DNA of 64,000 bases from a virus (Duplodnaviria; Caudoviricetes), in IMG/VR virus record IMGVR_UViG_3300008107_000020; one strand, 5' to 3'. Positions within the stretch are counted from its first letter, which is position 1; each line of letters begins with the position of its first letter. The translations under genes and the position numbers were made by a program. A model generated the notes under the pieces. It saw only the letters and a program-made list of their open reading frames with translations, did not search any database and was not told the origin of the DNA. This document shows positions 11,501-48,468 of the stretch, piece after piece.

Positions 11501-12864
11501 CTTATCGCAGAAAAAGTACTTTGACCTGAAGTTGCGTTAAGACCGTTTGTACCAGACGTACCTGATGAACCAGCTGTTGCTGAAGAACCAGACAACCTAC
11601 TTAAACCAGAAACACCATCTGTACCTGAAGTACCTGTTGAACCAGCTGATCCAGAAGAACCTGATGTATCACTTGCAGCGGATATACCATCTGTACCTGA
11701 AGTACCTGATGTACCAGCTGTTGCTGAAGAACCAGACAATCTTGATAAACCTGATGTACCAACTGTACCATTTGTTCCTGAAGAACCAGATGAAGCAGAT
11801 GAGCCACTTAATGCGCTTAAACCGTTATTACCAGCATTACCTGAAGTACCATTTGTACCAGTTGATCCAGATGAACCACTTAATGCTGACGCACCTATGT
11901 TACCTGCCACACCATTTGTACCATTTGAACCTGAGGTTGCAGATGAACCACTTAATTGTGATAAACCTGAAGCGCCAGCTGTACCTGAAGTACCAGTTGT
12001 ACCTGATGTCGCTGATGAACCGCTATTTAAGCTTAATCCTGAAGCACCCGCAGTACCATTTGTTCCTGAAGAACCTGAAGTTGCTGAAGAACCAGAACTA
12101 CCACTTAAACCACTATTACCTGAATTACCCGCAGTACCATTTGTACCTGTTGATCCTGAAGAACCTGAGGTCCCTGAAGATCTACTCAATGCCGATGCAC
12201 CGTCTGTACCAGCGGTACCAGTTGTTCCAGAAGTACCTGAAGTACCAGCAGAGCCAGATAATCTTGACAATCCTGATGTACCAACTGTACCGTTTGTTCC
12301 TGAAGAACCTGAAGAAGCGCTTGATCCGCTTAATTGAGACAATCCTGAATTACCAGCTGTTCCGTTTGATCCGCTCGTACCTGAAGTTGCGGATGAACCA
12401 GATGAACCTGCGCTACCACTTAATTGTGATAAACCGTTTGTACCCGCAGTACCTGTTGATCCAGAAGATGCTGAAGAACCAGCTGTTGCACTCAATCCTG
12501 AGTTACCAGCCGCACCTGAAGTACCGTTTGAACCTGTACTACCTGAGCTACCAGATGTACCAGAAGATCTACTCAAACCAGATTGGCCATTAGTACCTGA
12601 AGTACCAGTTGAACCAGCTGAACCTGAGCTACCACTTAATTGTGATAGACCATTTGTACCTGCTGTACCTGAAGTAGCTGAAGTACCAGCTGATCCTGAA
12701 GAACCGCTATTTGCACTAGCACCATTTGTACCGTTTGTACCAGTTGATCCACTTGATCCAGATGTTCCACTTGATTTACTTAATGATGATTGACCATCTG
12801 TTCCATTTGTTCCAGAAGAACCACTTGTTCCTGAAGAACCTGAAGATCTACTTAAACCTGATTG
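8569..12864 (-). CDS. C-terminal part of the giant Gly-X-Ser repeat tail-fibre-like protein, ending in a Peptidase_S74 intramolecular chaperone
   Basis: Repeat continues from Q-S-G-L-S-R at 12864. C-terminus SDQRVKDNV...GVNY...GVIAQEVQKVVPEV...LIEAIKDL. There is no credible own start: the track start at 12963 is an out-of-frame read of the upstream repeat. Confidence 0.85.
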   Translation of the reverse strand, partial: QSGLSRSSGSSGTSGSSGTNGTDGQSSLSKSSGTSGSSGSTGTNGTNGASANSGSSGSAGTSATSGTAGTNGLSQLSGSSGSAGSTGTSGTNGQSGLSRSSGTSGSSGSTGSNGTSGAAGNSGLSATAGSSASSGSTGTAGTNGLSQLSGSAGSSGSSATSGTSGSNGTAGNSGLSQLSGSSASSGSSGTNGTVGTSGLSRLSGSAGTSGTSGTTGTAGTDGASALSRSSGTSGSSGSTGTNGTAGNSGNSGLSGSSGSSATSGSSGTNGTAGASGLSLNSGSSATSGTTGTSGTAGASGLSQLSGSSATSGSNGTNGVAGNIGASALSGSSGSTGTNGTSGNAGNNGLSALSGSSASSGSSGTNGTVGTSGLSRLSGSSATAGTSGTSGTDGISAASDTSGSSGSAGSTGTSGTDGVSGLSRLSGSSATAGSSGTSGTNGLNATSGQSTFSAISGSSGTSGTTGTAGVAGNSGLSQLSGSSGSSGTTGTNGTAGAAGNSGASANSGSSGSTGTNGTNGNNGNNAVSGASGSSGSNGTNGTVGLMANSGASGSSGSSGSSGTNGTNGTSGLSRLAGSSATSGSSGTTGTAGTDGASGLSRNSGSSGTSGSTGTSGTTGNSGLSQLSGSSASSGSSGSTGTAGTNGLAVPSGTSTLSGSSGSSGTFGTNGAAGNNGLSANSGSSGSSGSTGTNGINGGNGASALSGSSGSTGTNGTSGNNGNNAVSGASGSSGSNGTNGTVGLMANSGASGSSGSSGSSGTNGTVGTSGLSRLAGSSATAGTSGTSGTDGQSGLSRSSGSSGSAGSTGTSGTDGVSGLSRLSGSSGSSGSSGTNGTIGVNGNSGNSGLSGTNGSTGTNGNNGANGNSGNSGLSGSNGTNGTNGNNGANGNSGNSGSSGSTGTAGTNGLVVPSGTSTLSGTSGSSGTNGTNGAAGNIGASALSGSSGSTGTNGTSGNAGANGLSANSGSSGSSGSTGTQGTSGNDRISGASGSSGSSGTSGTIGLVANSGASGSSGSSGSNGTNGAAGNIGASALSGSSGSTGTNGTSGNAGNIGASANSGSSGSSGSSGTNGTVGANALSAGFGVTQASGTSGSSGSTGTNGTVGNNGNAGASGLSRTSGSSGSTGTNGTSGNNGNSGISGLSGSSATGGTTGTGGVSGLSRTAGSSGTSATAGTSGTSGAGTSGVGANGTSGANGSSGTSGTSGTSGAGGTAGTGRLSASSGTSGTNGTSGANGTNGTAGAAGNSGANGAGGTSGINGSNGTSGVAGTSGQSISGTSGISGGSFTNQPDYLVRTVSTTQVQSVSFLKADIANTRLGINNATPAYTLDVTGTIYASADVIAYSDQRVKDNVVTISDALNKVRNMRGVNYTRNDIEDKSLKMGVIAQEVQKVVPEVISTRESDGHLAVAYSNLVGLLIEAIKDLDKEIQDLKK

Positions 12865-15800
12865 AAGTACCAGCTGTTCCGCTTGTTGCAGAAGAAGCCG
12901 AAGTTCCAGAGGATGCTGAAGCACCTGATACACCCGCAGTACCGTCAGTACCTTTAGAACCACTAGAACCAGAAGTTCCTGAAGTTCCTGAAGTTACACT
13001 TAAACCACTATTTGCAGCTAAACCTGAAGTACCAACCGTACCTGAAGTTGCTGAAGACCCTGAAGTTCCAGCTGAGCCACTATTATTACTTGAACCAATT
13101 GTACCAGCAGTACCAGTTGAACCTGAAGAACCTGAAGTTCCAGAACTTCTACTTAATGCTGAAGCACCATCTGTACCATTTGTTCCTGAAGACCCAGACG
13201 TTCCTGAAGATCCTGAAGATCTACTTAAACCTGAAGTACCATTTGTACCACTTGAACCAGAAGAAGCAGAAGATCCACTTAATTGTGACAACCCTGAAGC
13301 ACCTGCTGTACCGCTTGAACCAGAAGTACCTGAAGTTGCTGAAGAACCACTAGAACCAGACAATCTTGATAAACCTGATGTACCAACTGTTCCTGAGGTG
13401 GCTGAAGAACCAGCAGACCCTGAAGAACCACTGTTTGCTGATTGACCACTCGTACCGTTTGTACCAGTTGATCCTGAAGAACCAGAAGTTGCTGAAGAAC
13501 CCGAGTTGGCACTCAATCCTGAAGTAGCCGCTGAACCTGAACTACCTGAAGTTCCTGAAGTCGCAGATGTACCCGCAGAACCACTTGAACCTGATAATTG
13601 AGATAAACCATTTGTACCAGCTGTACCTGTAGTACCAGAAGATGCACTTGTACCTGATGAACCCGCATTTGCAGATGCACCATTTGTACCATTTGTACCT
13701 GTAGACCCACTAGAACCTGAAGTTCCAGCTGAGCCACTATTATTTGAAGAACCTGAGGTTCCAGCTGTACCTGAAGTTGCTGAAGAACCACTAGAACCTG
13801 ATGAACCCGCATTTGCAGAAGCACCATTTGTACCATTTGTTCCAGTTGTACCACTTGTTGCCGAAGAACCTGAGGTTGAACTTAAACCACTATTACCAGC
13901 ATTACCTGAAGTACCATTTGTACCCGTAGACCCAGACGAACCTGAAGTTCCTGAAGAACCTGAGCTTCTACTTAAACCTGATTGACCATCTGTACCTGAA
14001 GTACCAGTTGAACCAGCTGATCCCGATGTACCTGAAGTATCACTTGTAGCAGACACACCATCCGTACCTGAAGTACCAGACGTTCCAGCTGTTGCTGAAG
14101 AACCAGACAGTCTTGATAAACCGTTTGTACCAGCGGTACCAGTTGTTCCAGAAGAACCACTTGATGCGCTTGATCCACTTAATTGTGATAAACCAGAAAG
14201 ACCCGCAGTACCATTTGTACCAGTAGATCCTGAAGATGCTGAAGTACCGCTTGAACCACTATTTGCCGATTGACCACTTGTACCAGCGCTACCTGAAGAT
14301 GCTGATGATCCTGAAGAACCAGATGTTCCAGAAGTTGCACTTGATCCAGCACTACCTGAAGATCCGCTTAATTGAGACAATCCTGAGGTTCCAACCGTTC
14401 CAGAAGTTGCTGAAGAACCTGATGTAGCGGAGCTACCACTATTCGCACTCGCACCATTAGTACCATTTGTACCCGTAGAACCTGAAGAACCTGATGTTCC
14501 ACTTGATCTACTTAATGATGATTGACCATCTGTTCCAGAAGTTCCTGTAGAACCTGAAGAACCACTTGTTCCAGAAGTATCACTTGTAGCAGACACACCA
14601 TCTGTACCTGAAGTACCTGATGTACCAGCTGTTGCTGAAGAACCACTTAATCTACCCAATCCTGAAGTACCAGCGGTACCACTTGTAGCAGATGAACCAG
14701 AAGTTGCTGAAGAACCACTATTTGCACTCGCACCCGAAGTTCCATTAGAACCAGTTGAACCTGATGTTCCAGAAGTTGCTGAAGAACCAGCAGAACCACT
14801 TAAACCTGAGGATCCAGCTGTTCCTGAAGTTGCACTAGACCCTGAAGAACCTGAACTACCAGATGAACTACTTAAAGCTGAAGAACCAACTGTACCAGTA
14901 GTACCTGATGTACCACTTGATGCGGATGTTCCTGAAGAACCACTATTTGCAGCTAAACCTGAAGTACCATTTGTACCAGTTGATCCGCTTGATCCTGAAG
15001 AACCTGATGTTCCCGAAGATTTACTTAATGCAGAAGCACCGTCTGTACCAGCTGAACCACTTGATCCTGAAGAACCAGAAGTTCCTGAAGTTGCTGATGT
15101 TCCCGCTGAACCTGAGCTACCGCTTAACTGAGATAATCCAGATGTACCGACCGTACCTGAGGTCGCTGAAGAACCACTTGTAGCTGAACTACCTGAGTTA
15201 GCTGAAGCACCATTTGTACCGTTTGAACCAGTCGATCCAGATGAACCTGATGTTCCAGAACTTCTGCTTAAACCAGACTGGCCATCCGTACCTGAAGTAC
15301 CAGTTGAACCACTTGATCCAGATGTACCTGAAGTATCACTTAAAGCAGATTGACCATCCGTACCTGAAGTACCTGATGTACCAGCCGTTGCTGAAGAACC
15401 TGATAATCTACTTAAACCTGAGGTTCCAACCGTACCTGAAGTAGCTGAAGAACCTGAAGTAGCTGAGCTACCACTATTCGCTGATTGGCCACTTGTACCA
15501 GCAGAACCAGAAGACCCACTTGTACCAGATGTTGCTGAAGAGCCAGCTGAACCCGCACTACCACTTAATTGTGATAAACCACTTGTACCAGCTGTACCTG
15601 AAGTTGCTGAACTACCAGAAGTAGCTGAAGAACCTGAGTTTGCTGATGCACCGTTTGTACCGTTTGTACCAGTTGAACCTGAAGAACCTGAAGTTCCAGA
15701 ACTTCTACTTAATGCTGAAGCACCATCTGTACCAGAAGAACCTGAACTACCAGAAGAACCTGAAGTTCCACTTGTAGCCGAAGTACCCGCACTACCTGAA

Positions 15801-18800
15801 GATCCAGATAATTGAGATAAACCGTTTGTACCAGCGGTTCCTGAAGTAGCGGAGCTACCTGATGTTGCTGAAGAACCACTATTTGCGCTTAAACCAGATG
15901 TACCGTTTGTTCCTGTACTACCTGAAGATGCTGATGTACCAGCCGATCCTGAAGACGCTGATAAACCAGATGACCCTGAAGTTCCTGAGGTTGCAGAAGA
16001 ACCTGCACTACCAGCTGAACCGCTTAACGCTGAACTACCTGATGTTCCAGAAGTTGCTGAAGAACCCGAACTACCAGCAGAACCCGAAAGTTGACTTAAA
16101 CCTGATGTACCAGCTGTTCCTGATGTAGCTGAAGTCCCAGCAGAACCTGAGCTACCACTATTTGCACTTGCACCATTTGTACCGTTTGTACCTGTAGACC
16201 CACTAGAACCTGATGTACCCGAAGATCTACTCAAAGCAGACGCACCGTCCGTACCATTTGTTCCAGAAGAACCTGATGTACCCGATGAACCTGAAGATCT
16301 ACTTAAACCCGATGTACCGTTTGTTCCTGAAGAACCGCTTGATGCACTCGATCCGCTTAATTGTGATAAACCTGAGTTACCAGCGGTACCTGAAGTACCA
16401 GTTGTACCTGAGCTAGCTGAAGAACCAGCAGACCCTGAAGAACCGCTTAATTGTGACAAACCTGATGTACCTGCGGTACCGCTTGTTGCGGAACTACCAG
16501 AAGTTGCTGAAGAACCTGAATTTGCGGATGCACCATTTGTACCGTTTGTACCTGTAGACCCACTAGAACCTGATGTACCCGAAGATCTACTCAATGCCGA
16601 TGCCCCATCAGTACCTGCTGATCCTGAACTACCTGAACTACCTGAAGTTCCAGAAGTTGCTGAAGTTCCAGCCGATCCTGAAGAACCTGATAATTGAGAT
16701 AAACCATTTGTACCAGCTGTACCTGAAGTTGCAGAAGAACCACTTGATCCTGAAGATCCAGAGTTTGCAGAAGCACCAACAGTACCGCTTGTACCACTTG
16801 ATCCTGAAGAACCTGAAGTTCCAGCAGAACCACTATTATTTGAAGAACCTGAAGTTCCAGTTGTACCAGTTGTACCTGAAGAAGCGCTTGTACCAGATGA
16901 ACCAGAGTTAGCTGAAGCACCATTTGTACCGCTTGTACCAGTTGTACCGCTTGTTGCAGAAGAACCTGAAGTTGCGCTTAAACCACTATTACCTGCATTA
17001 CCTGAAGTACCGTTTGTACCAGTTGATCCGCTTGATCCTGAAGAACCAGAAGTTCCTGAAGATTTACTTAATGCAGAAGCACCGTCTGTACCAGCTGAAC
17101 CTGAAGATCCACTTGATCCAGATGTACCTGAAGTAGCTGAAGTTCCAGCAGAACCCGATGAACCACTCAATTGAGACAAACCAGAAGTACCAGCTGTGCC
17201 TGAGGTTGCGGATGAACCAGAAGTTGCTGAAGACCCTGAATTTGCGGATGCACCATTTGTACCAGCTGATCCTGAAGATCCACTTGAACCTGATGTACCA
17301 CTTGATTTACTTAATGCCGATTGACCATCTGTACCTGATGTACCAGTTGAACCGCTTGAACCAGACGTTCCTGAAGTATCTGATGTAGCTGATTGTCCAT
17401 CCGTACCTGAAGTACCAGACGTTCCAGCTGTTGCTGAAGAACCAGACAATCTTGATAAACCTGATGTACCAACTGTTCCTGAAGTTGCAGATGAACCTGA
17501 AGTTGCTGAAGAACCACTATTTGCTGATTGACCACTTGTACCAGCAGAACCTGAAGATCCTGAAGATCCTGATGTACCACTAGTTGCTGAAGAACCAGCG
17601 GATCCAGCACTACCGCTTAATTGTGATAAACCACTTGTACCAGCTGTACCTGAAGTAGCGGAAGAACCTGATGTTGCTGAACTACCAGAGTTTGCAGAAG
17701 CACCATTTGTACCCGCAGTTCCAGTTGATCCTGATGAACCAGAGGTACCACTTGATTTACTTAAAGCGGATGCTCCATCAGTACCAGCCGATCCTGAAGA
17801 CCCGCTTGATCCAGAAGTTCCTGAAGTTGCTGATGTACCAGCGGATCCACTTGACCCACTCAATTGTGACAACCCTGATGTACCAGCGGTTCCTGAGGTA
17901 GCTGAACTACCTGAAGTTGCGGATGAACCACTATTTGCGGCTAAACCTGAAGTACCATTAGAACCTGTAGAACCAGAAGATGCTGATGTACCAGAAGATG
18001 CTGATAATGCACTTAAACCTGAAGAACCTGCGGTTCCTGACGTTGCTGAAGAACCTGAACTACCAGCAGAACTGCTTAACGCTGAACTACCAGAGGTACC
18101 TGTTGTACCACTTGTTGCGGAACTACCGCTTGTCGCAGAAGAACCGCTATTTGCAGCTAAACCTGAAGTACCATTTGTACCAGTAGAACCTGAAGATCCA
18201 CTTGAACCAGATGTACCTGAAGATTTACTTAATGCTGACGCACCATCAGTACCCGCACTACCTGAAGAACCAGAAGAACCTGATGTTCCTGAAGTCGCAG
18301 ATGTACCCGCTGAACCAGAAGAACCACTTAATTGAGACAATCCTGATGTACCAACTGTACCTGAAGTTGCGGATGAACCAGAAGAAGCTGAAGTTCCTGA
18401 AGAAGCTGAAGCCCCACTAGAACCAGCTGAACCAGTTGACCCACTTGTTCCTGAGGTTGCGGATGAACCCGCAGAACCTGAAGAACCACTATTAGCTGAA
18501 GAACCAACTGTACCAGTAGTACCTGATGTACCACTTGATGCGCTTGTTCCTGATGAACCTGAATTTGAACTTAATCCTGAAGTACCATTTGTACCTGAAG
18601 TTGCTGAAGATCCGCTTGACGCTGATGTCCCTGAAGACGCTGATGCTCCCGAAGAACCGTTAGAACCTGTAGAACCAGAGGTACCACTTGTTGCTGAACT
18701 ACCAGAAGACGCTGATAAACCAGATGAACCTGCGGTTCCTGAAGTTGCTGAAGATCCTGATGAAGCTGAACTACCAGAATTAGCTGATAAACCTGAGGTA

Positions 18801-21800
18801 CCATTTGTACCTGAAGTTGCTGAAGAACCAGCTGTACCACTTGTTGCTGAAGACGCTGAAGCTCCTGATGAACCACTTGTTCCTGTAGAACCAGCTGTAC
18901 CGCTTGTTGCTGAACTACCAGAAGATGCTGACAACCCACTTGAACCAGCTGAGCCAGAAGTTGCGGATGATCCTGATGTAGCAGAGCTACCACTATTTGC
19001 ACTCAACCCTGATGTACCATTTGTTCCACTTGTAGCTGAACTACCAGAAGAAGCGGATGTACCTGAAGAAGCTGAAGCACCTGAAGCACCAGCTGTACCG
19101 CTTGAACCAGAGGTACCTGAAGTTGCAGAAGAACCACTTGAAGCACTTAAACCTGAAGAACCAGCTGTACCTGAAGTAGCGGAGCTACCTGAAGTCGCTG
19201 AGGATCCGCTTAATGCGCTTAAACCACTTGTACCATTTGTTCCTGAAGTTGCGGATGAACCAGAAGATGCTGATGTACCTGAAGAAGCTGAAGCTCCTGA
19301 TGACCCTACTGAACCTGAAGAACCTGATGTTCCTGACGTAGCAGAACTACCAGAACTTGCACTCAATCCTGAAGAACCTGCGGTTCCTGAAGTTGCTGAG
19401 GATCCTGATGTGGCAGAGCTACCACTATTTGAAGATAGACCTGACGTACCAGCTGTTCCTGAAGTAGCGGAGCTACCTGAAGAACCTGATGAACCAGAAC
19501 TATTACTATTTCCACTCGAACCTGCGGTTCCTGAAGAAGCTGAACTTCCTGAAGAACCCGATGTACCACTAGTTGCAGATGACCCACTTGTAGCGGATGA
19601 TCCAGAATTAGCAGCTAAACCTGAAGTACCATTTGTACCTGAAGTTGCTGAAGATCCGCTTGACGCTGATGTCCCTGAAGATGCGCTTAAACCTGAAGAA
19701 CCAGCTGATCCAGCTGAACCTGATGTTCCTGACGTAGCAGAACTACCAGAAGATGCGCTTAAACCTGAACTACCTGATGTACCGCTTGTAGCAGAGCTAC
19801 CTGAGGTTGCAGAAGAACCTGAATTAGAACTCAACCCTGATGTACCATTTGTTCCTGAAGTTGCGGATGAACCAGAAGATGCTGATGTACCTGAAGAAGC
19901 TGAAGCTCCTGATGAACCAGCGGAACCACTTGTTCCCGAAGTACCAGAAGATGCTGAACTACCAGAAGATGCACTTAAACCTGAAGAACCAGCTGTACCT
20001 GAAGTTGCAGAAGAACCAGAGGAAGCTGATGACCCACTATTTGAGGCTAAACCTGAAGTACCATTTGTTCCACTTGTAGCTGAACTACCAGAAGAAGCTG
20101 ATGTACCAGAAGAAGCTGAAGCCCCTGAAGAACCTGATGTACCAGATGATCCTGAAGTAGCGGAAGTTCCTGAAGAACCCGCTGAACCAGAGCTACCACT
20201 ATTTGCGGCTAAACCAGAAGTACCATTTGTACCTGAAGTTGCGGAAGAACCAGAAGAAGCTGAAGTTCCTGAAGAAGCTGATGCTCCCGAAGAACCGTTA
20301 GAACCTGTAGAACCAGATGTTCCACTTGTTGCTGAAGATCCAGAAGAAGAACTTAAACCTGAAGAACCAACTGTTCCTGAGGTTGCGGATGAACCTGATG
20401 TTCCTGAAGAACCAGAGTTACTAGATAAACCGCCAGTACCATTTGTACCCGTAGAACCGCTTGAACCAGATGTTGCTGAAATAGCAGAAATACCATCAGC
20501 ACCATCAACACCGCTTGAACCAGATGTACCTGAAGAACCCGAAGAACCTGATGTTTTACTTGAACCAGCTAAACCGCTTGTACCTGTCGTACCTGAAGTC
20601 GCAGATGTACCTGAAGTTGCAGAAGAACCACTATTTGAAGATAATCCTGAAGTACCGTTTGTTCCTGAAGTTGCTGAAGATCCGCTTGATGCAGATGTTC
20701 CTGATGTTGAAGAAACACCGCTTGATCCAGCTGTACCAGAAGTTGCTGAAGAACCTGAGGTTGCTGAACTACCAGAAGATGCAGATAAACCCGAAGATCC
20801 TGATGTACCACTTGTAGCAGAACTACCTGAGGTTGCAGAAGAACCACTATTTGAAGATAAACCCGAAGTACCGTTTGTTCCTGAAGTTGCAGAAGAACCA
20901 GATGATGCAGACGTACCTGAAGTTGCTGAAGCACCTGAAGAACCAGCGCTACCTGTTGATCCTGATGTTCCTGATGTAGCACTTGATCCAGCTGAACCAG
21001 AAGACGCACTTAAACCAGAAGTACCAACTGTACCAGAAGTTGCTGAAGAACCTGAAGAAGCTGAAGCGCCAGAATTACCACCAGTTCCTGAAGTTCCTGA
21101 AGAACCACTTGAACCAGATGAGAATGATAATCTACTTTGACCAGCAACACCAGTTGTACCATTTGTACCAGAAGAACCAGAAGAACCTGAAGTTTCACTT
21201 AAACCACTGTTTGAACTAGCACCATTTGTACCGCTAGAACCTGAGGTTGCAGAAGAACCTGAGGTTGCGCTTGAACCACTATTTGCGGCTAAACCAGAAG
21301 TACCGATTGTACCTGAAGTTGCAGACGAACCTGAAGATGCTGCTGAACCTGATGACCCACTTTCACCACTTGAACCATTAGAACCTGATGTTCCTGAAGA
21401 ACCAGCTGTTCCTGAAGAGGCTGAGTCGCCAGAACTTCCTGATGTTCCAGTAGAGCCTGAAGCACCACTTGAACCAGATGTTCCAGTAGAACCGTTATCA
21501 CCAGAAGAACCGTTTGTTCCTGAAGAACCAGAAGCGCCTGATTCACCATTTAAACCATTTATACCTGAAGAACCTGAAGATCCAGTTGACCCTGAAGACC
21601 CACTTTCACCACTTTCACCTGAAGTACCAAAACTACCACCATCACCAGATGTACCATCGCTACCTGTAGAACCAGATTCACCCGATTGACCAGATGTCCC
21701 AAATGAGCCATCATTACCCGAAGATCCATCGCTACCTGTAGAACCAGATTCACCACTTATTCCTGAAGTTCCTGAAGAACCGTTATCACCGCTTGTACCA

Positions 21801-24800
21801 TCCGATCCTGTACTACCACTTTCACCGCTTATTCCTGATGTACCGTTAGAACCTTCGTTTCCTGATGTACCATCTGATCCAGTTGAACCTGATTCACCAC
21901 TTATTCCTGAAGTTCCTGAAGAACCGTTATCACCGCTTGTACCATTTGAACCAGTTGACCCAGAGTCGCCACTTACACCCGATGTACCATTAGAACCATC
22001 ATTACCTGATGTACCATCTGAACCAGTTGAACCGCTTTCACCTGATAAACCACTTGTACCGTTAGATCCGTTATTACCTGATGTGCCATCACTACCCGTG
22101 CTACCACTTTCACCTGATACACCAGAAGTTCCACTTGAACCATTATCACCAGAAGAACCATCTGAACCAGTTGATCCCGATTCTCCACTTATACCAGAGG
22201 TTCCGTTGGAGCCATCATCACCTGAAGAACCGTTAGTTCCTGAAGAACCTGAAGCTCCGCTTTCACCATTTAAACCATTTATACCTGAAGAACCTGAAGA
22301 TCCAGTTGATCCCGAAGACCCACTTTCGCCAGATTGGCCAGATGTTCCAAATGAACCATCATTACCTGAAGAACCATCTGATCCAGAGGATCCAGACTCA
22401 CCTGATATACCAGATGTTCCAAATGAACCATCATTACCTGAAGATCCATCGCTACCTGTGGAACCAGATTCACCCGATTGACCAGATGTACCGTAAGACC
22501 CATCAGCCCCACTTGATCCATCTGACCCAGTTGATCCAGACTCACCACTTATTCCCGAAGTCCCTGAAGATCCGTCATTACCTGATGTGCCATCACTACC
22601 AGTTGAACCTGATTCTCCACTTATTCCTGAAGTTCCATTTGAACCATTATCACCGCTACTACCATCACTACCAGTTGATCCAGACTCACCACTTATTCCT
22701 GAAGTCCCATTAGATCCGTCATTACCTGAAGATCCGTCTGAACCAGTTGAACCACTTTCACCTGATTGACCTGAAGTTCCGTTGGAACCATCGTTACCTG
22801 AAGACCCATCTGAACCAGTAGACCCAGATTCACCACTTATACCAGAGGTTCCAAAACTACCGTTAGCTCCTGAAGAACCGTCTGAACCAGTTGAACCTGA
22901 TTCACCACTTATACCAGAGGTTCCGTTAGAACCGTTATCACCAGAAGAACCGTTAGTTCCTGAAGAACCTGAAGCTCCGCTTTCACCATTTAAACCATTT
23001 ATACCTGAAGAACCTGAAGATCCAGTTGATCCTGAGGATCCCGATTCACCACTTTCACCTGAAGTACCAAAACTACCGTCAGCTCCTGAAGAACCATCAC
23101 TACCCGTGCTACCACTTTCACCTGATTGACCAGATGTTCCTGAAGAACCGTCATTACCTGAAGATCCGTCTGAACCTGTGCTACCACTTTCACCGCTTAT
23201 CCCTGATGTTCCAAATGAACCATCCGCTCCTGAAGAACCATCTGACCCAGTTGATCCAGACTCACCACTTATTCCTGAAGTACCATTAGATCCGTCATTA
23301 CCAGATGTACCATCTGATCCAGTAGACCCAGATTCACCTGATTGGCCAGAGGTTCCAAATGAACCGTCAGCCCCACTTGATCCATCGGATCCTGAAGACC
23401 CAGATTCACCTGATTGGCCAGAGGTTCCAAATGAACCGTCAGCCCCACTTGATCCATCGGATCCTGTAGAACCAGATTCACCTGATTGGCCAGAAGTACC
23501 AAAAGATCCATCATTACCTGAAGAACCTGAAGATCCAGTTGATCCCGATTCTCCACTTATTCCTGAAGTTCCATTAGATCCGTCATTACCTGAAGATCCG
23601 TCTGAACCTGTGCTACCACTTTCACCACTTATTCCTGAAGTCCCATTTGAGCCATTATCGCCTGATGTACCATCTGAACCAGTTGATCCTGACTCGCCAG
23701 ATTGGCCAGAAGTACCAAAAGATCCATCATTACCTGAAGACCCATCTGATCCAGTAGACCCAGATTCACCCGATTGACCAGAGGTTCCAAATGAACCATC
23801 ATTACCTGAAGACCCATCTGAACCTGTGCTACCGCTTTCACCCGATTGACCAGAAGTACCATTTGATCCGTCATTACCTGAAGAACCATTGGATCCGTTT
23901 GATCCCGATTCACCACTTATTCCTGAAGTTCCATCAACACCATCAACACCATCAACACCATTTGTACCAGAAGTACCACTTTCACCTGATGTACCAGATT
24001 CACCCGATGAACCACTTTCACCAGATTGGCCAGATGTACCGTTAGAACCATCCGCTCCTGAAGAACCATCTGAACCAGTAGACCCAGATTCACCACTTAT
24101 ACCAGAGGTTCCTGAAGAACCGTCATTACCACTACTACCATCACTACCAGTTGAACCAGATTCCCCTGAAGTCCCGTTAACGCCTGTTGTACCAGAATCA
24201 CCGTCCGAACCGTTAGTTCCTGAAGAACCTGAAGCTCCGCTTTCACCATTTAAACCATTTATACCTGAAGAACCTGAAGACCCAGTTGATCCTGAAGACC
24301 CACTTTCGCCAGATTCACCTGAAGTTCCATTTGAACCATTATCACCACTACTACCATCACTACCTGTACTACCACTTTCTCCACTTACCCCTGAAGTTCC
24401 TGAAGAACCATCATTACCTGATGATCCATCTGATCCTGTACTACCGCTTTCACCACTTATACCTGAAGTTCCGTTGGAACCATCGTTACCGCTTTCACCT
24501 GATGTACCATTACTGCCTGATTCACCAGAAATACCTGAAGTACCAAAACTACCATCATTACCACTTGACCCATCTGATCCTGTTGATCCCGATTCACCAC
24601 TTATACCAGAGGTTCCGTTAGAACCACTTTCTCCACTTATTCCTGAAGTTCCTGAAGAACCATCATTACCACTAGATCCGTCAGACCCTGTTGAACCTGA
24701 TTCACCAGAAATACCTGAAGTACCAAAACTACCGTCAGCTCCTGAAGAACCATCTGATCCTGTTGACCCAGATTCACCAGAAATACCAGAAGTTCCATTG

Positions 24801-25560
24801 GAACCATCGGCACCACTTTCACCTGAAGTACCAGTTGACCCTGATTCACCTGAAACACCTGAAGTACCATTAGAACCATCGTTACCGCTTATCCCACTTG
24901 TGCCATCAACACCATCAACACCATCAATACCATTTGTACCAGAAGTACCAGATTGACCACTCGTACCATCATTTCCTGTGCTACCAGATTCACCTGATAT
25001 ACCTGATGTTCCATTTGAACCATCCGCTCCTGAAGAACCATCTGAACCAGTACTACCAGATTCACCACTTACTCCTGAAGTCCCTGAAGATCCGTCATTA
25101 CCTGATGTGCCATCACTACCAGTTGAACCTGATTCACCACTTATACCAGAGGTTCCGTTGGAACCATCTGCTCCTGAAGAACCGTCAGAGCCAGTTGAAC
25201 CACTTTCTCCACTTATTCCTGAAGTTCCTGAAGAACCATCATTACCACTTTCACCTGATGTGCCATTACTACCACTTTCTCCACTTAAACCTGAGGTTCC
25301 GTTACTACCATCATTACCCGATGTACCATCTGATCCTGTTGACCCAGATTCGCCAGACATCCCCGAAGTTCCGTTGGAGCCATCGGCACCGCTTTCACCT
25401 GAAGTACCAGTGCTACCTGATTCACCACTTATCCCTGAAGTTCCTGAAGAACCATCATTACCACTACTACCATCACTACCATTACTACCTGATTCTCCAG
25501 AAACACCAGATGTACCATCAGAACCACTCAAACCCGAATAACCTGAAGTACCAGCTGTAC
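9050..25560 (-). repeat. About 16.5 kb coding tripeptide repeat in three compositional zones
   Basis: About 25560-21430: acidic unbroken Gly-X-Y, about 24-aa unit GTSGISGESGSTGSDGSSGNDGS(F/N/S). About 21430-12870: (G/A)-X-S with GLSQLS, GLSRLS and ALSKSS inserts. 12860-9050: Asn-richer GTNG/GNNG. Synonymous codons vary between units. Confidence 0.95.
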
Positions 25561-25897
25561 CAGAAGTACCTGTTAATAAAGGTGAATATGAATATTCACC
25601 AGTAGCTGCATTAAACGACACAAAATAGTTCGGTGAACTATTTTCGGTCATTCCTGTAACAAATAACTCATTTAAAATATAAACACCCTTAAGATCTTGG
25701 GTGTTTTCCCACTGTCCAGTGGTATCGTTCCAAACTAAAATGTCCCCTTCATTGGGGCCACTAATTACAACGTCAGATAGATCATCTATTCCAAGATTTT
25801 CTATAACGTCTTTTATATTTTGGAAGTTAGCATCTAATTCCGCATAGGATAGTGCCCTTCCTAGATCGTCTCTAAGATAAATTGTTACTGTTGCCAT
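12848..25897 (-). CDS. N-terminal part (4349 aa) of the giant Gly-X-Ser repeat fibre protein
   Basis: Phage fibre-like N-terminus (YLRDDLGRALSYAELDANF), then more than 4200 aa of tripeptide repeat. It ends abruptly in SIRFK* at a frameshift. Confidence 0.85.
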   Translation of the reverse strand: MATVTIYLRDDLGRALSYAELDANFQNIKDVIENLGIDDLSDVVISGPNEGDILVWNDTTGQWENTQDLKGVYILNELFVTGMTENSSPNYFVSFNAATGEYSYSPLLTGTSGTAGTSGYSGLSGSDGTSGVSGESGSNGSDGSSGNDGSSGTSGISGESGSTGTSGESGADGSNGTSGMSGESGSTGSDGTSGNDGSNGTSGLSGESGSNGTSGESGNDGSSGTSGISGESGSTGSDGSSGADGSNGTSGISGESGSTGSDGTSGNDGSSGTSGVSGESGSTGSDGSSGADGSNGTSGISGESGSTGNDGTSGQSGTSGTNGIDGVDGVDGTSGISGNDGSNGTSGVSGESGSTGTSGESGADGSNGTSGISGESGSTGSDGSSGADGSFGTSGISGESGSTGSDGSSGNDGSSGTSGISGESGSNGTSGISGESGSTGSDGSSGNDGSFGTSGISGESGSNGTSGESGNDGSNGTSGISGESGSTGSDGSSGNDGSSGTSGVSGESGSTGSDGSSGDNGSNGTSGESGESGSSGSTGSSGSSGINGLNGESGASGSSGTNGSDGDSGTTGVNGTSGESGSTGSDGSSGNDGSSGTSGISGESGSTGSDGSSGADGSNGTSGQSGESGSSGESGTSGESGTSGTNGVDGVDGVDGTSGISGESGSNGSNGSSGNDGSNGTSGQSGESGSTGSDGSSGNDGSFGTSGQSGESGSTGSDGSSGNDGSFGTSGQSGESGSTGSDGTSGDNGSNGTSGISGESGSTGSDGSSGNDGSNGTSGISGESGSTGSSGSSGNDGSFGTSGQSGESGSTGSDGSSGADGSFGTSGQSGESGSSGSDGSSGADGSFGTSGQSGESGSTGSDGTSGNDGSNGTSGISGESGSTGSDGSSGADGSFGTSGISGESGSTGSDGSSGNDGSSGTSGQSGESGSTGSDGSSGADGSFGTSGESGESGSSGSTGSSGSSGINGLNGESGASGSSGTNGSSGDNGSNGTSGISGESGSTGSDGSSGANGSFGTSGISGESGSTGSDGSSGNDGSNGTSGQSGESGSTGSDGSSGNDGSNGTSGISGESGSTGSDGSSGDNGSNGTSGISGESGSTGSDGTSGNDGSSGTSGISGESGSTGSDGSSGADGSYGTSGQSGESGSTGSDGSSGNDGSFGTSGISGESGSSGSDGSSGNDGSFGTSGQSGESGSSGSTGSSGSSGINGLNGESGASGSSGTNGSSGDDGSNGTSGISGESGSTGSDGSSGDNGSSGTSGVSGESGSTGSDGTSGNNGSNGTSGLSGESGSTGSDGTSGNDGSNGTSGVSGDSGSTGSNGTSGDNGSSGTSGISGESGSTGSDGTSGNEGSNGTSGISGESGSTGSDGTSGDNGSSGTSGISGESGSTGSDGSSGNDGSFGTSGQSGESGSTGSDGTSGDGGSFGTSGESGESGSSGSTGSSGSSGINGLNGESGASGSSGTNGSSGDNGSTGTSGSSGASGSTGTSGSSGDSASSGTAGSSGTSGSNGSSGESGSSGSAASSGSSATSGTIGTSGLAANSGSSATSGSSATSGSSGTNGASSNSGLSETSGSSGSSGTNGTTGVAGQSRLSFSSGSSGSSGTSGTGGNSGASASSGSSATSGTVGTSGLSASSGSAGSSATSGTSGSTGSAGSSGASATSGTSASSGSSATSGTNGTSGLSSNSGSSATSGSSATSGTSGSSGLSASSGSSATSGSSATSGTAGSSGVSSTSGTSASSGSSATSGTNGTSGLSSNSGSSATSGTSATSGTTGTSGLAGSSKTSGSSGSSGTSGSSGVDGADGISAISATSGSSGSTGTNGTGGLSSNSGSSGTSGSSATSGTVGSSGLSSSSGSSATSGTSGSTGSNGSSGASASSGTSASSGSSATSGTNGTSGLAANSGSSGSAGSSGTSATSGSSGTSGSSGASASSGTSASSGSSATSGTNGTSGLASNSGSSASSGSSATSGTAGSSGLSASSGSSASSGTSGTSGSAGSSGASASSGTSASSGSSATSGTNGTSGLSSNSGSSATSGSSATSGTSGSSGLSASSGSSATSGTSGSAGSAGSSGLSASSGTSASSGSSATSGTNGTSGLAANSGSSATSGSSATSGTSGSSGSSASSGTAGSSGNSNSSGSSGSSGSSATSGTAGTSGLSSNSGSSATSGSSATSGTAGSSGLSASSGSSATSGTSGSSGSVGSSGASASSGTSASSGSSATSGTNGTSGLSALSGSSATSGSSATSGTAGSSGLSASSGSSATSGTSGSSGTAGASGASASSGTSASSGSSATSGTNGTSGLSANSGSSATSGSSATSGSAGSSGLSASSGSSATSGTAGSTGTSGSSGASASSATSGTAGSSATSGTNGTSGLSANSGSSASSGSSATSGTAGSSGLSASSGSSATSGTSGSTGSNGSSGASASSGTSASSGSSATSGTNGTSGLSSNSGSSGTSASSGTSGTTGTVGSSANSGSSGSAGSSATSGTSGSTGSAGSSGASASSGTSASSGSSATSGTVGTSGLSQLSGSSGSAGTSATSGTSGSSGSSGSAGTDGASALSKSSGTSGSSGSSGSTGTNGTSGLAANSGSSATSGSSATSGTTGTSGSSALSSSAGSSGSSATSGTAGSSGLSALSASSGTSASSGSTGSNGTSGLAANSGSSATSGSSATSGTAGTSGLSQLSGSSGSAGTSATSGTSGSSGSSGSAGTDGASALSKSSGTSGSSGSTGTAGTNGASANSGSSATSGSSATSGTAGTSGLSQLSGSAGSAGSSATSGTSGSSGSSGSAGTSGQSANSGSSATSGSSATSGTVGTSGLSRLSGSSATAGTSGTSGTDGQSATSDTSGTSGSSGSTGTSGTDGQSALSKSSGTSGSSGSSGSAGTNGASANSGSSATSGSSATSGTAGTSGLSQLSGSSGSAGTSATSGTSGSSGSSGSAGTDGASALSKSSGTSGSSGSSGSTGTNGTSGNAGNSGLSATSGSSATSGTTGTSGTNGASANSGSSGTSASSGTTGTTGTSGSSNNSGSAGTSGSSGSSGTSGTVGASANSGSSGSSGSSATSGTAGTNGLSQLSGSSGSAGTSATSGTSGSSGSSGSAGTDGASALSRSSGTSGSSGSTGTNGTNGASANSGSSATSGSSATSGTAGTSGLSQLSGSSGSAGSSASSGTTGTSGTAGNSGLSQLSGSSASSGSSGTNGTSGLSRSSGSSGTSGSSGTNGTDGASALSRSSGTSGSSGSTGTNGTNGASANSGSSGSAGTSATSGTAGTSGLSQLSGSAGSSGSSATSGTSGSSALSGSAGSAGSSATSGTSGSSGLSASSGSAGTSASSGSTGTNGTSGLSANSGSSATSGSSATSGTAGTNGLSQLSGSSGSAGTSATSGTSGSSGSSGSSGTDGASALSRSSGTSGSSGSTGTNGTNGASANSGSSATSGSSATSGTAGTSGLSQLSGSAGSAGSSATSGTSGSSGSAGTSGQSANSGSSATSGSSATSGTVGTSGLSRLSGSSATAGTSGTSGTDGQSALSDTSGTSGSSGSTGTSGTDGQSGLSRSSGTSGSSGSTGSNGTNGASANSGSSATSGSSATSGTVGTSGLSQLSGSSGSAGTSATSGTSGSSGSSGSAGTDGASALSKSSGTSGSSGSSGSTGTNGTSGLAANSGSSGTSASSGTSGTTGTVGSSALSSSSGSSGSSGSSATSGTAGSSGLSGSAGSSATSGTSGSTGSNGTSGASANSGSSATSGSSATSGTAGTSGLGRLSGSSATAGTSGTSGTDGVSATSDTSGTSGSSGSTGTSGTDGQSSLSRSSGTSGSSGSTGTNGTNGASANSGSSATSGSSATSGTVGTSGLSQLSGSSGSAGSSATSGTSGSSGSSASSGSAGTSGQSANSGSSGTSASSGSTGTNGTAGLSGLSQLSGSSASSGSSGTTGTAGTNGLSRLSGSSATAGTSGTSGTDGVSATSDTSGTSGSAGSTGTSGTDGQSGLSRSSGSSGTSGSSGSTGTNGTSGNAGNSGLSSTSGSSATSGTTGTNGTNGASANAGSSGSSGSSATSGTAGTSGSSNNSGSAGTSGSSGSTGTNGTNGASANAGSSGTSASSGTTGTAGTNGLSQLSGSSGSAGTSATSGTSGSSGSAATSGLSANSGSSATSGSSGSTGTNGTSGQSANSGSSGSAGSSATSGTVGTSGLSRLSGSSGSSATSGTSGSSGTAGASGLSQLSGSSASSGSSGTNGTSGLSRSSGSSGTSGSSGTNGTDGASALSRSSGTSGSSGSTGTAGTIGSSNNSGSAGTSGSSATSGTVGTSGLAANSGLSVTSGTSGTSGSSGSKGTDGTAGVSGASASSGTSASSATSGTAGTSIRFK

Positions 25898-46815: not shown

Positions 46816-47058
46816 ATGAATAAAATTACTTTTGAATACTTGAAAGATTTAAAAAATCAGTTAACAACATTAGCTGATGAACAACAAGATAAGCTGGAAG
46901 AAATTGATAACGAAAATTTTAAAGATGATGTTTCTGAAAACATTTTTGGTAGAATAGATGATGTTTTATATGAGATAGAGACTATAATGACTGATGTTGA
47001 AGAGGGTTATTATAGTAACGAAAAAAATGATCAAGATGATGATTTTGATGATTATTAA
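46816..47058 (+). CDS. Acidic hypothetical protein
   Basis: ORF track; preceded by TATTTATT. Confidence 0.65.
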   Translation: MNKITFEYLKDLKNQLTTLADEQQDKLEEIDNENFKDDVSENIFGRIDDVLYEIETIMTDVEEGYYSNEKNDQDDDFDDY

Positions 47059-47076
47059 AAATAATTTTTAAAAAAA

Positions 47077-47121
47077 CTTGTTTTTTCCAAAAAACTTTAC
47101 TAATATTGTAGCATATTTATA
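47077..47121 (+). promoter_or_regulatory. Promoter P1 (host-type) with adjacent TATTTATA motif
   Basis: CTTG-N20-TAATATTG, with the same AAAAAACTTGTTTTTT context as P2 at 48431. Confidence 0.6.
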
Positions 47122-47127
47122 AAAGAT

Positions 47128-47472
47128 ATGAAAAACTACTAGATTAACAAATTAATCATCGTAACCAGAAAGGACTTAGCACCAGGTTACCAAATTGCTC
47201 AAGCGAGTCACGCTTTAGCGCAATTCATGCTTGACTATCCTGATCAAGCTAATCAATGGAACAATAACTATCTTATCTGTTTGTCCGTTGAAAACGAAAA
47301 TCAATTAAAAACTTTACTGGAAAAGATGTGTATGCATGACATACCCATATCTTATTTTCTCGAACCAGATCTTGGTAACGAGATGACAGCTATTGCTTTT
47401 CAAGGAAGTGAAAAGGCGAGTAAATTAACTTCGTCTATACCATTGGCATTAAAATCTTATAATAAACAATAA
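47128..47472 (+). CDS. PTH2-family peptidyl-tRNA hydrolase-like protein with in-frame TAG at codon 5
   Basis: ATG AAA AAC TAC TAG ATT AAC AAA TTA ATC ATC GTA ACC AGA AAG GAC TTA... The conserved KLIIVTRKDL...AQASHA motif lies between the TAG and the track start at 47227. Confidence 0.8.
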
Positions 47473-47482
47473 ATCAACGATT

Positions 47483-47740
47483 ATGAAGTAGATTACAAAA
47501 AAACCAGAAGAGATCGTGTTTCACTTTAATAAGAAACATCTCGAAACCCCAACAATCCCCATGTGGGTTGTGAAGTGTCGTGGCGACACCTATTATGTTA
47601 ACCATATTGATGTATCCCCTGGTGTGGGGTTCTCAACAAAGGAAACTCCTGATAACCCTCATACTAAAGGGAGTATAAAATTCAAGGCCAACTTGATGAT
47701 TGAGGAACAAAATAACATAATTAACGCTAAAATTTATTAA
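47483..47740 (+). CDS. Hypothetical protein with in-frame TAG at codon 3
   Basis: ATG AAG TAG ATT ACA AAA AAA CCA GAA GAG ATC GTG TTT CAC..., in frame with the track ORF at 47516. The ATG has an A-rich leader 10 nt after the previous stop. Confidence 0.7.
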
Positions 47741-47742
47741 AA

Positions 47743-48036
47743 ATGAAAAACACAAAACACAACCCAACAATGATGATTAAATCAGCTTTCTCAAATAAAC
47801 TTCACAAAATACTAGGTGAATGCATCGAACACAAACGCTATTCAAGAGAATGGTATGATTGTAAAAGAGTAAAAACCAAATTGACTGATGAGGATAAAAT
47901 TAAACTTTTTGATGAGATCAAAACCATCTATGAAGAAACTTCTCAAGAACTGAGAAATTATTTTCAGGATAGAAATCTTAAGAAAAGAGTTGAAAAAGAA
48001 CGAGTTAAGAGAGGTTATACAGTCCAGTTGAGTTAA
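47743..48036 (+). CDS. Hypothetical basic protein
   Basis: ORF track. Confidence 0.65.
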   Translation: MKNTKHNPTMMIKSAFSNKLHKILGECIEHKRYSREWYDCKRVKTKLTDEDKIKLFDEIKTIYEETSQELRNYFQDRNLKKRVEKERVKRGYTVQLS

Positions 48037-48048
48037 AGACTCAATGGA

Positions 48049-48189
48049 TGTTGTGTGACGAAATTGGTATACGTGCTGGTCAGTACCCAAAAGAGTGTAG
48101 AATGGGGGAAACTGGCGGACATACTACAGACACGAGTAGTAGGAGATTAGGTCTTTAAATCCATGTGGGTTCGAATCCCACCACAACAG
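48049..48189 (+). ncRNA. tRNA-Leu-like RNA with a 65-nt insert in place of the anticodon loop
   Basis: Acceptor TGTTGTG/CACAACA, Leu-type D arm ACG-AAATTGGTATA-CGT, stem CTGGT/ATTAG, T arm GTGGG-TTCGAAT-CCCAC. Confidence 0.65.
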
Positions 48190-48250
48190 CGCACCAACAT
48201 AAGGTTGGAACCTCAAGGCTACGTAGAGGATAATGGTTAACGTAGCAAAT

Positions 48251-48321
48251 GGTTGGATGACCGAGAGAATAGGTAAAAATCCGCAAGATTTTTTACGGTG
48301 GTTTGAATCCATCTCCAACCT
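48251..48321 (+). tRNA. tRNA-Cys(GCA), degenerate
   Basis: Full cloverleaf with U73, but C33, a TTTG T-loop and no GG in the D-loop. Confidence 0.6.
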
Positions 48322-48328
48322 CTAAAAT

Positions 48329-48403
48329 GGCTCTATGGTGTAGCGGCAACATAGGAGACTCTAAATCTCACAGTCACGGGTTCGAACCCCGTTAGGGCCA
48401 CCA
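48329..48403 (+). tRNA. Amber suppressor tRNA (anticodon CUA) with encoded CCA
   Basis: GGCTCTA/TAGGGCC acceptor, GTGT/ACAT D stem, loop CT-CTA-AA, ACGGG-TTCGAAC-CCCGT, A-CCA. Confidence 0.88.
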
Positions 48404-48436
48404 AAAAATAAAAAAAATAAAATTTTTTTGAAAAAA

Positions 48437-48468
48437 CTTGTTTTTTTCAGAAACTTTGCTTAATTTTG
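48437..48468 (+). promoter_or_regulatory. Promoter P2 of the main tRNA array
   Basis: CTTG-N20-TAATTTTG. Confidence 0.7.

Follow-up and report, generated by a model that had tools for sequence, protein, structure and literature searches.

How can two adjacent phage genes be expressed when each of them meets an in-frame TAG within a few codons of its ATG? The question is raised by a locus of a 64,000-nucleotide stretch of DNA (called here the window) from the IMG/VR virus record IMGVR_UViG_3300008107_000020 (Duplodnaviria; Caudoviricetes). In this locus, a gene related to the peptidyl-tRNA hydrolases of the Pth2 type (gene 1) and a second small gene (gene 2) precede, on the same strand, a gene for a tRNA carrying the anticodon CUA. 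The reading favoured here, to which we give a probability of about 0.7, is that they form a translational cassette in which both proteins would be made only when the phage suppressor tRNA reads the early UAG. Comparison with relatives indicates that the TAG is selected for, is read as sense, is tied to the matching anticodon and is confined to the leader, in genomes that otherwise use the standard code. The features on which this reading relies are the following.

47128–47472, + strand: gene 1, Pth2-like, 114 codons including the TAG (Pfam PF01981, phrog_1866, profile against 2zv3)
47140–47142, + strand: gate codon 1, in-frame TAG at codon 5, followed by ATT (sequence; conservation)
47483–47740, + strand: gene 2, small all-beta protein, 85 codons including the TAG (AlphaFold2; without Pfam or PHROG family)
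47489–47491, + strand: gate codon 2, in-frame TAG at codon 3, followed by ATT (sequence; conservation)
48329–48403, + strand: tRNA(CUA), elongator-type amber suppressor with encoded CCA (ARAGORN; Rfam tRNA, 58.9 bits)

From position 47128, gene 1 reads ATG AAA AAC TAC TAG ATT AAC AAA TTA ATC ATC GTA ACC AGA AAG GAC, and it stops with a TAA at 47470–47472. When the TAG is read as a residue, the product matches the Pfam family PTH2 (PF01981) over residues 8–79 with 27.5 bits, the cut-off being 23. It also matches phrog_1866 (E 9.5e-18), and the profile of its family matches the solved Pth2 structure 2zv3 (E 3.2e-8) as well as 1q7s, 1rzw, 1wn2 and 1xty, archaeal and human Pth2 structures being among these targets. 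The first in-frame ATG, GTG or TTG past the TAG sits 29 codons downstream; therefore, the conserved N-terminus of gene 1 precedes any canonical start. A first-pass annotation of this DNA, made by a model from the letters alone, had described a PTH2-like gene with a TAG at codon 5 and a conserved N-terminal motif ahead of the next ATG, and the PF01981 match starting at residue 8 confirms this description.

Gene 2 opens with ATG AAG TAG ATT at 47483, one base before the start initially given for it (47484), and its stop codon occupies 47738–47740; the TAG at codon 3 and the TAG-ATT context had been correctly described. Gene callers begin it at a GTG at 47516 and thus predict products of 74 amino acids. 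However, only about one gene 2 relative in two has a GTG just ahead of the invariant FHFNK motif, so that this GTG is not a conserved start.

The tRNA(CUA) gene starts 840 nt past the second TAG on the same strand, and both ARAGORN and Rfam recognize it, in agreement with the intact tRNA(CUA) previously reported about 850 nt downstream. The encoded molecule has a canonical cloverleaf with G1-C72, A73, U33, a purine at position 37 and the anticodon loop CUCUAAA. It does not have the three consecutive G-C pairs that would close the anticodon stem of an initiator and shows elongator features instead. The 'Pyl' label given by ARAGORN reflects the anticodon only, and the score with the general tRNA model is good. 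Similarity to other phage tRNAs did not assign an amino acid to it, as tRNAs for Trp, Asn, Leu and Arg are each closest in turn.

Whether these early TAGs matter can be judged from relatives. For the gene 1 family, viral contigs were scanned with the family alignment and the best 80 of 312 relatives were kept, i.e. 62 non-redundant ones; the scan for the gene 2 family gave 71 loci in 61 non-redundant contexts. Among the best 80 of 312, the early stop of the gene 1 family is a TAG in 61 of the 62 non-redundant relatives and a TAA in the last one, none being devoid of an early stop. This arrangement is also seen in seven of eight further relatives from metagenome-assembled genomes; the contigs concerned bear archaeal or bacterial labels but resemble binned phage DNA. 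The leaders comprise 2–9 codons including the ATG and are variable (MK, MT, MKN, MTH, MKET, MCL, MKKPFYY and others). In the gene 2 family, an early TAG is present in 45 of the 61 non-redundant loci, mostly 1–4 sense codons past the ATG and ahead of FHFNK, and an early TAA or TGA in none. Nine of the 16 loci in which gene 2 is devoid of TAG have an adjoining Pth2-like gene that carries such an early stop (is gated). TAG-bearing members occur in both halves of the gene 2 tree, the supported branches of which force at least three changes of state. In two unrelated protein families, the TAG keeps its position even between proteins that are only about 40% identical. A tRNA(CUA) gene lies at most 4 kb away in 68 of 79 Pth2-like loci, and on the same contig in 41 of the 45 gated gene 2 loci, where it is often the sole tRNA gene in 12 kb. 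Conservation of the early TAG in homologues and its co-occurrence with tRNA(CUA), which the first-pass annotation had proposed as a check, are thus both borne out (61/62 and 45/61, with tRNA(CUA) usually within a few kb).

These counts also bear on the trivial explanation that the genes are broken or result from assembly errors. Gene callers indeed shorten or skip them, gene 2 being unannotated in the Rhizobium phage RHph_I1_18 and called elsewhere as 74 amino acids from the internal GTG. However, the early stop is found with an intact downstream frame in more than 100 independent contigs. The stretch was moreover recovered in DNA runs from lake-water and freshwater metagenomes, and 46900–47769 shows zero differences in the DNA contigs of two independent lake/freshwater studies; both TAGs are therefore real. 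Refuted by conservation, this explanation keeps virtually no probability.

Two features of the stops themselves point to read-through. Considering both families, 106 of 107 gates use TAG. In the gene 1 family, 48 of the gate TAGs have A as the next base, 13 have G, one has C and none has T. A purine thus follows 61 of 62 gates versus 22 of 39 genuine TAG terminators from the same genomes (Fisher p = 8.6e-8). Efficient amber suppression is classically associated with a purine, above all A, next to the UAG on its 3' side, and this bias indicates selection on context.

An alternative would be that the ATG and the TAG delimit a leader mini-ORF (open reading frame) and that the protein begins at the next codon, ATT in the window and GTG in the mycobacteriophages Bxz1 and Myrna, by reinitiation or direct initiation; tRNA(CUA) would then be dispensable. 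About two-thirds of the post-TAG codons are near-cognate starts (ATT, ATA, ATC, GTG), one relative (L070) has an ATG at about the position of the ATT, and the Shine-Dalgarno spacing of Bxz1 and Myrna fits the GTG annotated as start after the TAG. However, as TAA and TGA together account for 94% of the stops (TAG terminates 39 of the 629 long ORFs of these genomes, i.e. 6.2%), leader ORFs should mostly end with one of these two, and this is the reverse of what the gates show. Furthermore, the post-TAG codon cannot initiate in 21 of 62 gene 1 relatives (GTT, GTA, ACA, ACT, AAC, AAA, CTT or AGC), and a variant strain of the window phage, which keeps the TAG of gene 1, has GTT instead of the following ATT. 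A Shine-Dalgarno sequence, where present, precedes the upstream ATG by 6–9 nt and can be as far as 27 nt from the post-TAG codon; in the GC-richer lineages its spacing fits the upstream ATG. Initiation at the post-TAG ATT, which the first-pass annotation had named as the outcome most damaging to its proposal, therefore fails as a general explanation, although it would still be conceivable for the two ATT codons of the window. A restart would also leave unexplained the linkage with tRNA(CUA) as well as the TAA-gated gene and the internal TAGs described below. On balance, it appears unlikely. As to a bypass by +1 frameshift of the prfB type, the conserved protein stays in the same frame past the TAG.

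The single TAA gate is found in a 675-kb genome with a GC content of 25% (L219, IMGVR_UViG_3300035208_009193), where the Pth2-like gene opens with ATG AAA GAA ACA TAA ATT. This genome encodes 39 tRNAs, including a tRNA(UUA) but no tRNA(CUA). Although a single case, this is the covariation between stop and anticodon that a read-through model predicts. The genes neighbouring this gene end normally in TAA, their main stop.

In two other relatives, L162 and L179, a second in-frame TAG lies within the Pth2-like gene, at about codon 91 and codon 39, respectively. The conserved C-terminal motifs follow in frame, and TAG is therefore translated there. The next codon is GTN in both, and opposite these TAGs the aligned sequences of relatives have Ser and Thr rather than Gln. 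Such internal TAGs require an elongator and thus also bear on the proposal that UAG is the start codon itself, read by an initiator-like tRNA(CUA). The constant location of the TAG at the extreme 5' end would agree with this proposal, and in Escherichia coli, initiator tRNAs engineered to carry a CUA anticodon are able to initiate at UAG. However, tRNA(CUA) has elongator features (G1-C72, no three G-C pairs by the anticodon loop), and the TAG is preceded, with no stop in between, by an in-frame ATG in each of the 62 non-redundant Pth2-like loci and in 43 of the 45 gated loci of gene 2. The two remaining gene 2 loci have an ATG nine codons upstream (L032) and a GTG (L052). Initiation at UAG is thus very improbable.

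Could the TAG simply be a neutral sense codon? The suppressor would then be kept for another purpose, and a tolerated TAG would have been fixed by chance near the tRNA gene without any regulation. Suppressor tRNAs and in-frame TAGs are well known from phages using genetic code 15, in which TAG is read as Gln, Borges et al. (bioRxiv 10.1101/2021.08.26.457843) propose that TAGs build up after the acquisition of a suppressor, and L162 and L179 each carry an extra internal TAG. However, drift would scatter the TAGs, whereas all 65 Pth2-like relatives checked have their stop within the short leader and the 7188 codons of the Pth2-like bodies, which include 424 Gln codons, contain only two, those of L162 and L179. 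The position held to about 40% identity in two unrelated families and the purine bias, which reflects selection on context, also disagree with drift, as does the finding that, elsewhere in two complete genomes and a partial one, nothing exceeds the controls. This neutral explanation is therefore rather improbable.

The latter genomes are G004 (482 kb, complete), G005 (343 kb, complete) and G001 (142 kb, partial), and they were examined together with the window for mid-gene stops, i.e. stops with coding-like sequence on both sides. Mid-gene TAGs number 0 in the window, 5 in G001, 5 in G004 and 3 in G005, below the TAA controls in every genome (19, 44 and 19 in G001, G004 and G005, respectively). 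None of the four shows the many in-frame TAGs that characterize code-15 phages: all use the standard code and are not recoded. Therefore, the suppressor serves a handful of codons and not a change of code. Within the window, no internal TAG was found in credible genes, two endolysin-like genes included, in line with the earlier claim that the genome is not recoded. Among the genes checked for the first-pass annotation, only two had been said to end in TAG, those at 7098 and 32909. They do so, with a TAA in reserve 6 and 5 codons further on, respectively, and so does a third gene at 12848 (minus strand), whose backup TAA comes 25 codons later. No enrichment of backup stops was detected behind TAG-terminated genes.

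The pattern is not conspicuous by number. Scanning the window for an ATG followed by at most five codons, a stop and an open frame, as the first-pass annotation had suggested, gives 9 occurrences with TAG, 17 with TAA and 3 with TGA, mostly in spurious frames; taken within the window alone, the early TAG is thus not above chance, and its significance rests on homology and conservation with relatives. Likewise, a genome-wide scan for ATG N3-12 TAGATT in five related genomes did no better than a reversed control. In G004, three consecutive early TAGs surround tRNA(CUA), those of the Pth2-like gene, gene 2 and a third gene, and the other early-TAG matches of this genome are no commoner than TAA/TGA controls. 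A filter based on codon usage, applied to find early-TAG genes, failed to pick up the short genes of the cassette in the window and in G001; it therefore indicates only roughly that gating is not widespread.

Two side observations concern other TAGs near cassettes. The third gene of G004, located straight after its tRNA(CUA) (L021, position 6699; G004:374379), also opens with ATG AAA AAG TAG ATT and encodes 160 amino acids without any family. On the minus strand of L042–L048, L059, L060, L063 and L065, an ORF of about 667 codons lies by the cassette and has one conserved TAG at about codon 210; it could be two genes in the same frame or a single read-through gene.

Several points weigh against gating by the suppressor. 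ATT, which is known as a rare start codon, comes directly after both TAGs of the window, and the leader, of Bacteroidota type, has no Shine-Dalgarno sequence that would fix the start. About a quarter of the gene 2 relatives, and the Pth2-like genes of L002, L029 and L260, are ungated despite a nearby tRNA(CUA). The tRNA(UUA) of L219 lies 19 kb from the gated gene, and this is one case only. Since tRNA(CUA) and the gated genes are apparently co-transcribed, the added value of the gate is obscure. In the alignment to 2zv3, the GKGK loop of the Pth2-like protein is two residues shorter and has no conserved Lys, and gene 2 is without known fold or function. The main caveat comes from Bxz1 and Myrna, in which the Shine-Dalgarno spacing favours the post-TAG GTG, the annotated start.

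The cassette is present in cultured phages. Bxz1 and Myrna (ATG TAG GTG and GTG TAG GTG) carry a Pth2-like gene common to about 200 relatives of cluster C, with tRNA(CUA) 130–300 nt downstream. Gating in this lineage is doubtful, as the gene may be made there without suppression. GenBank lists their tRNA as tRNA-Ser in Myrna (L144, 1966–2037) and as tRNA-OTHER in Bxz1 (L145, 2157–2229); ARAGORN types both as CUA. In RHph_I1_18, the unannotated gene 2 opens with ATG AGT GAG TTC ATG TAG AAC and ends about 10 nt before tRNA(CUA). Both protein domains are present without TAG in Atu_ph07 and Phosso.

Taken together, conservation of the TAG, its exclusive use, the purine that follows it, the linkage with tRNA(CUA), the TAA/tRNA(UUA) case and the internal TAGs give strong comparative support to the original proposal that both proteins need read-through by the tRNA(CUA) of their operon. 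The functioning of the cassette could be depicted as follows. The order is promoter-like element, Pth2-like gene, gene 2, ORF3, tRNA-like RNA, tRNA-Cys and tRNA(CUA). Ribosomes would initiate at the ATG of genes 1 and 2 and reach the UAG after four and two sense codons, respectively. If the host release factor 1 wins, a peptide of 2–4 residues would be freed and no protein made; if the charged phage tRNA(CUA) wins, the full protein would be synthesized. The variable leader would accept any inserted residue, the purine after the UAG would favour suppression and, owing to the location of the TAG in the leader, a closed gate would waste a short peptide only. The level of both proteins would thus track the working activity of the suppressor tRNA, beyond transcription alone. 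Both would work together on the tRNA or peptidyl-tRNA species that arise from suppression, a tRNA-directed hydrolase being coupled to suppressor activity as feedback or feed-forward compensation. More speculatively, loops may exist in which drop-off from the unsuppressed minigenes feeds the hydrolase, as the first-pass annotation proposed, read-through damage is compensated or the suppressor itself is controlled.

What could the two proteins do? The catalytic residues of Pth2 are the Lys of the GKGK loop and the Asp of the DAG motif. The Pth2-like family keeps R9, D11, Q17, Q20, H23 and an invariant E-P-D motif (E74, P75, D76), the latter aligning with the DAG position of 2zv3. A hydrolase activity is plausible for this protein; it is related to Pth2 (PF01981 match) but lacks the lysine motif, so that its initial designation as a peptidyl-tRNA hydrolase is to be taken as putative.

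Gene 2 matches no Pfam or PHROG family and none of its 745 database relatives is named. Its AlphaFold2 model (predicted local distance difference test, pLDDT, 93.5) is a small all-beta domain in which conserved Lys, His and Thr are abundant. Fold searches with this model gave nothing informative, either against the PDB with Foldseek, with a wide VIA-align search (best Z 3.8) or against the clusters of the AlphaFold database (AFDB), where only unnamed small proteins were found; a search of a protein atlas gave no usable match. A WW-domain-like match (E 0.0026 over 18 residues) was discarded as weak, the fold searches giving it no backing. A second gene 2 lineage has an unrelated acidic C-terminal domain and its tRNA(CUA) lies 130–1200 nt upstream. 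This extension of about 100 amino acids, which has no Pfam family, was tried as a Pth2-like domain and rejected (hhalign probability 1.9%).

The Pth2-like gene and gene 2 adjoin in about 25 contigs, and in L069 both domains are found in one ORF behind one early TAG. From this adjacency and this fusion, we infer that the two proteins act together, probably on a tRNA-related substrate. A prediction of their complex scored 0.00, which is uninformative either way. The interdomain linker of L069 (6255–6290) resembles the 3' half of a tRNA gene, with a T arm GGTTCGATTCC, an acceptor strand and CCA, and the fusion may have arisen by read-through of a decayed tRNA gene. A more specific and tentative proposal, which we regard as possible but doubtful, is that the cassette serves as a homeostat of stop-codon read-through, in which the all-beta protein would guide the Pth2-like enzyme, the latter acting on the acylated or peptidyl form of the suppressor.

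The other features of the locus are the following.

47074–47097, + strand: promoter-like 24-nt motif AAACTTGTTTTTTNCANAAACTTT, copy 1, about 30 nt before gene 1 (motif count)
47743–48036, + strand: ORF3, 97 amino acids, without TAG, between gene 2 and the RNA genes (ORF call)
48049–48189, + strand: tRNA-like RNA with acceptor stem, T arm and an insert of about 65 nt for the anticodon loop (fold; Rfam)
48251–48322, + strand: tRNA-Cys(GCA), directly before the suppressor (ARAGORN; Rfam, 41.3 bits)
48434–48457, + strand: promoter-like motif, copy 2, at the start of the next unit, a leader and the remaining 14 tRNAs (motif count)

The motif AAACTTGTTTTTTNCANAAACTTT occurs exactly twice in the 64 kb, with 0 copies expected by chance, once ahead of gene 1 and once just after tRNA(CUA), so that the two copies bracket the cassette. 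No terminator-like site was found between them. Because of this bracketing and of this lack of terminator-like site, the stretch between the two copies is considered as one putative transcription unit. Metatranscriptome contigs of the variant strain span genes 1–3, but such contigs show neither transcription nor its level. No function could be assigned to ORF3 by comparison with Pfam and PHROG. A tRNA-Cys gene stands beside tRNA(CUA) in many related loci.

The acceptor stem of the tRNA-like RNA pairs 48049–48055 with 48182–48188. This RNA shows a weak Rfam match to the 3' end of transfer-messenger RNA (tmRNA) and is kept in L001 and L004 (99%) and L005 (91%). The region 48024–48190 is found as head-to-tail contigs in two metatranscriptomes of different studies, with a depth of 62 versus 4–10 for the genes. 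The junction joins 48190, 'CA' and 48024 in one of them and 48188, 104 nt and 48021 in the other; the 'CA' looks as though a CCA end had been joined to a 5' end located 25 nt upstream of the acceptor stem. The RNA could be circular or tandem; these contigs may also derive from a tandem duplication of the DNA in those strains. The DNA runs show instead an 84-nt insertion at 48020/48021. Phage tmRNA genes, one of them circularly permuted, are found a few kb from the cassette in L006, L011, L026 and L041, which fits a neighbourhood devoted to translation quality control.

The window derives from a large phage. It is low in GC (about 33% outside one giant gene) and contains an array of 16 tRNA genes, PHROG matches to endolysin, helicase and ATP-dependent protease, and an ORF of 4349 amino acids. 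The latter (12848–25897, minus strand) has a GC content of 45–47% within this 33% GC genome; it stops with the TAG at 12848 mentioned above, the next in-frame stop being 25 codons further. The IMG/VR relatives of the window are contigs of 51–482 kb. Completeness is put at 45% for the 142-kb contig that is the closest long relative, so that the genome in this lineage should be roughly 300 kb.

How does the cassette compare with known systems? No prior description of early-TAG genes beside suppressor tRNAs was found in the literature searched, although this does not prove their absence. Code-15 phages, i.e. crAss-like, Lak and other gut phages (Borges et al.; Peters et al., PMC9523058), resemble it in that a phage tRNA(CUA) reads in-frame TAGs in a standard-code host and that the need for this tRNA has been proposed as a means of regulating expression. 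However, they carry tens to hundreds of TAGs over late, structural and lysis genes. Their code-change genes are written in the standard code, and Borges et al. (bioRxiv 10.1101/2021.08.26.457843) describe such code-change modules upstream of recoded lysis genes. By contrast, the cassette has a single TAG 1–8 codons past the ATG, in genes that adjoin the tRNA, in a standard-code genome. The jumbo phages with standard code XacN1 (PMC5852040) and AP-J-162 (PMC11242549) are also large and combine extensive tRNA arrays with a gene for peptidyl-tRNA hydrolase and a CUA tRNA, to which the label tRNA-Pyl or tRNA-OTHER is often given. Two tRNA(CUA) genes were reported in the Xanthomonas phage XacN1, for which the authors sought targets by reading through annotated amber stops and identified none (PMC5852040), and the CUA tRNA of the Sinorhizobium phage AP-J-162 was called tRNA-Pyl by its authors (PMC11242549). 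The targets proposed here differ from such annotated stops, as they occupy the 5' ends of genes which are shortened or skipped during annotation.

Other likenesses concern regulation. The release factor 2 gene prfB also has an early in-frame stop and a product level that reports on termination versus an alternative event, but this is a functional analogy only: its UGA is escaped by a +1 frameshift and the gene senses its own product, whereas in the cassette the frame continues past the TAG, a dedicated tRNA is needed and any link between the products and termination or suppression is putative. In Streptomyces, bldA tRNA-Leu(UAA) likewise gates a small set of TTA-containing genes such as adpA (PMC10732093), each requiring one separately regulated tRNA. 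However, the codon is there a rare sense codon read by a developmental tRNA of the host, whereas the cassette uses a stop codon for which a release factor competes and a tRNA from the same operon. Lastly, the gated leaders recall the bar minigenes of phage lambda (an ATG, 1–4 sense codons and a stop), and here a neighbouring gene is Pth-like. The toxicity and drop-off of bar minigenes were defined experimentally in pth-defective E. coli, whereas the leaders of the cassette vary in length and sequence.

To our knowledge, the suppressor tRNAs of non-recoded phages have so far been without known targets. The cassette offers both a target and a logic for such orphan suppressors, a stop just past the start acting as a translational AND-gate that would be opened by a dedicated tRNA, and it would be a natural counterpart of the amber-gated expression switches of synthetic biology. 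It also matters for annotation, as gene 2 is absent from the GenBank entry of RHph_I1_18 and 11 residues short in many databases, and as the tRNA is labelled Pyl, Ser or OTHER. The idea is directly testable, since phages in culture carry the cassette: Bxz1 and Myrna, which are grown on Mycobacterium smegmatis, and RHph_I1_18, which is grown on Rhizobium. If the cassette were moreover a homeostat, the suppressor would set the level of its own regulator, and a phage with the standard code would run a controlled UAG read-through, for host takeover or counter-defence. It would then constitute an autonomous module, open to exchange and encountered repeatedly among phages of Bacteroidota, Proteobacteria and Actinobacteria.

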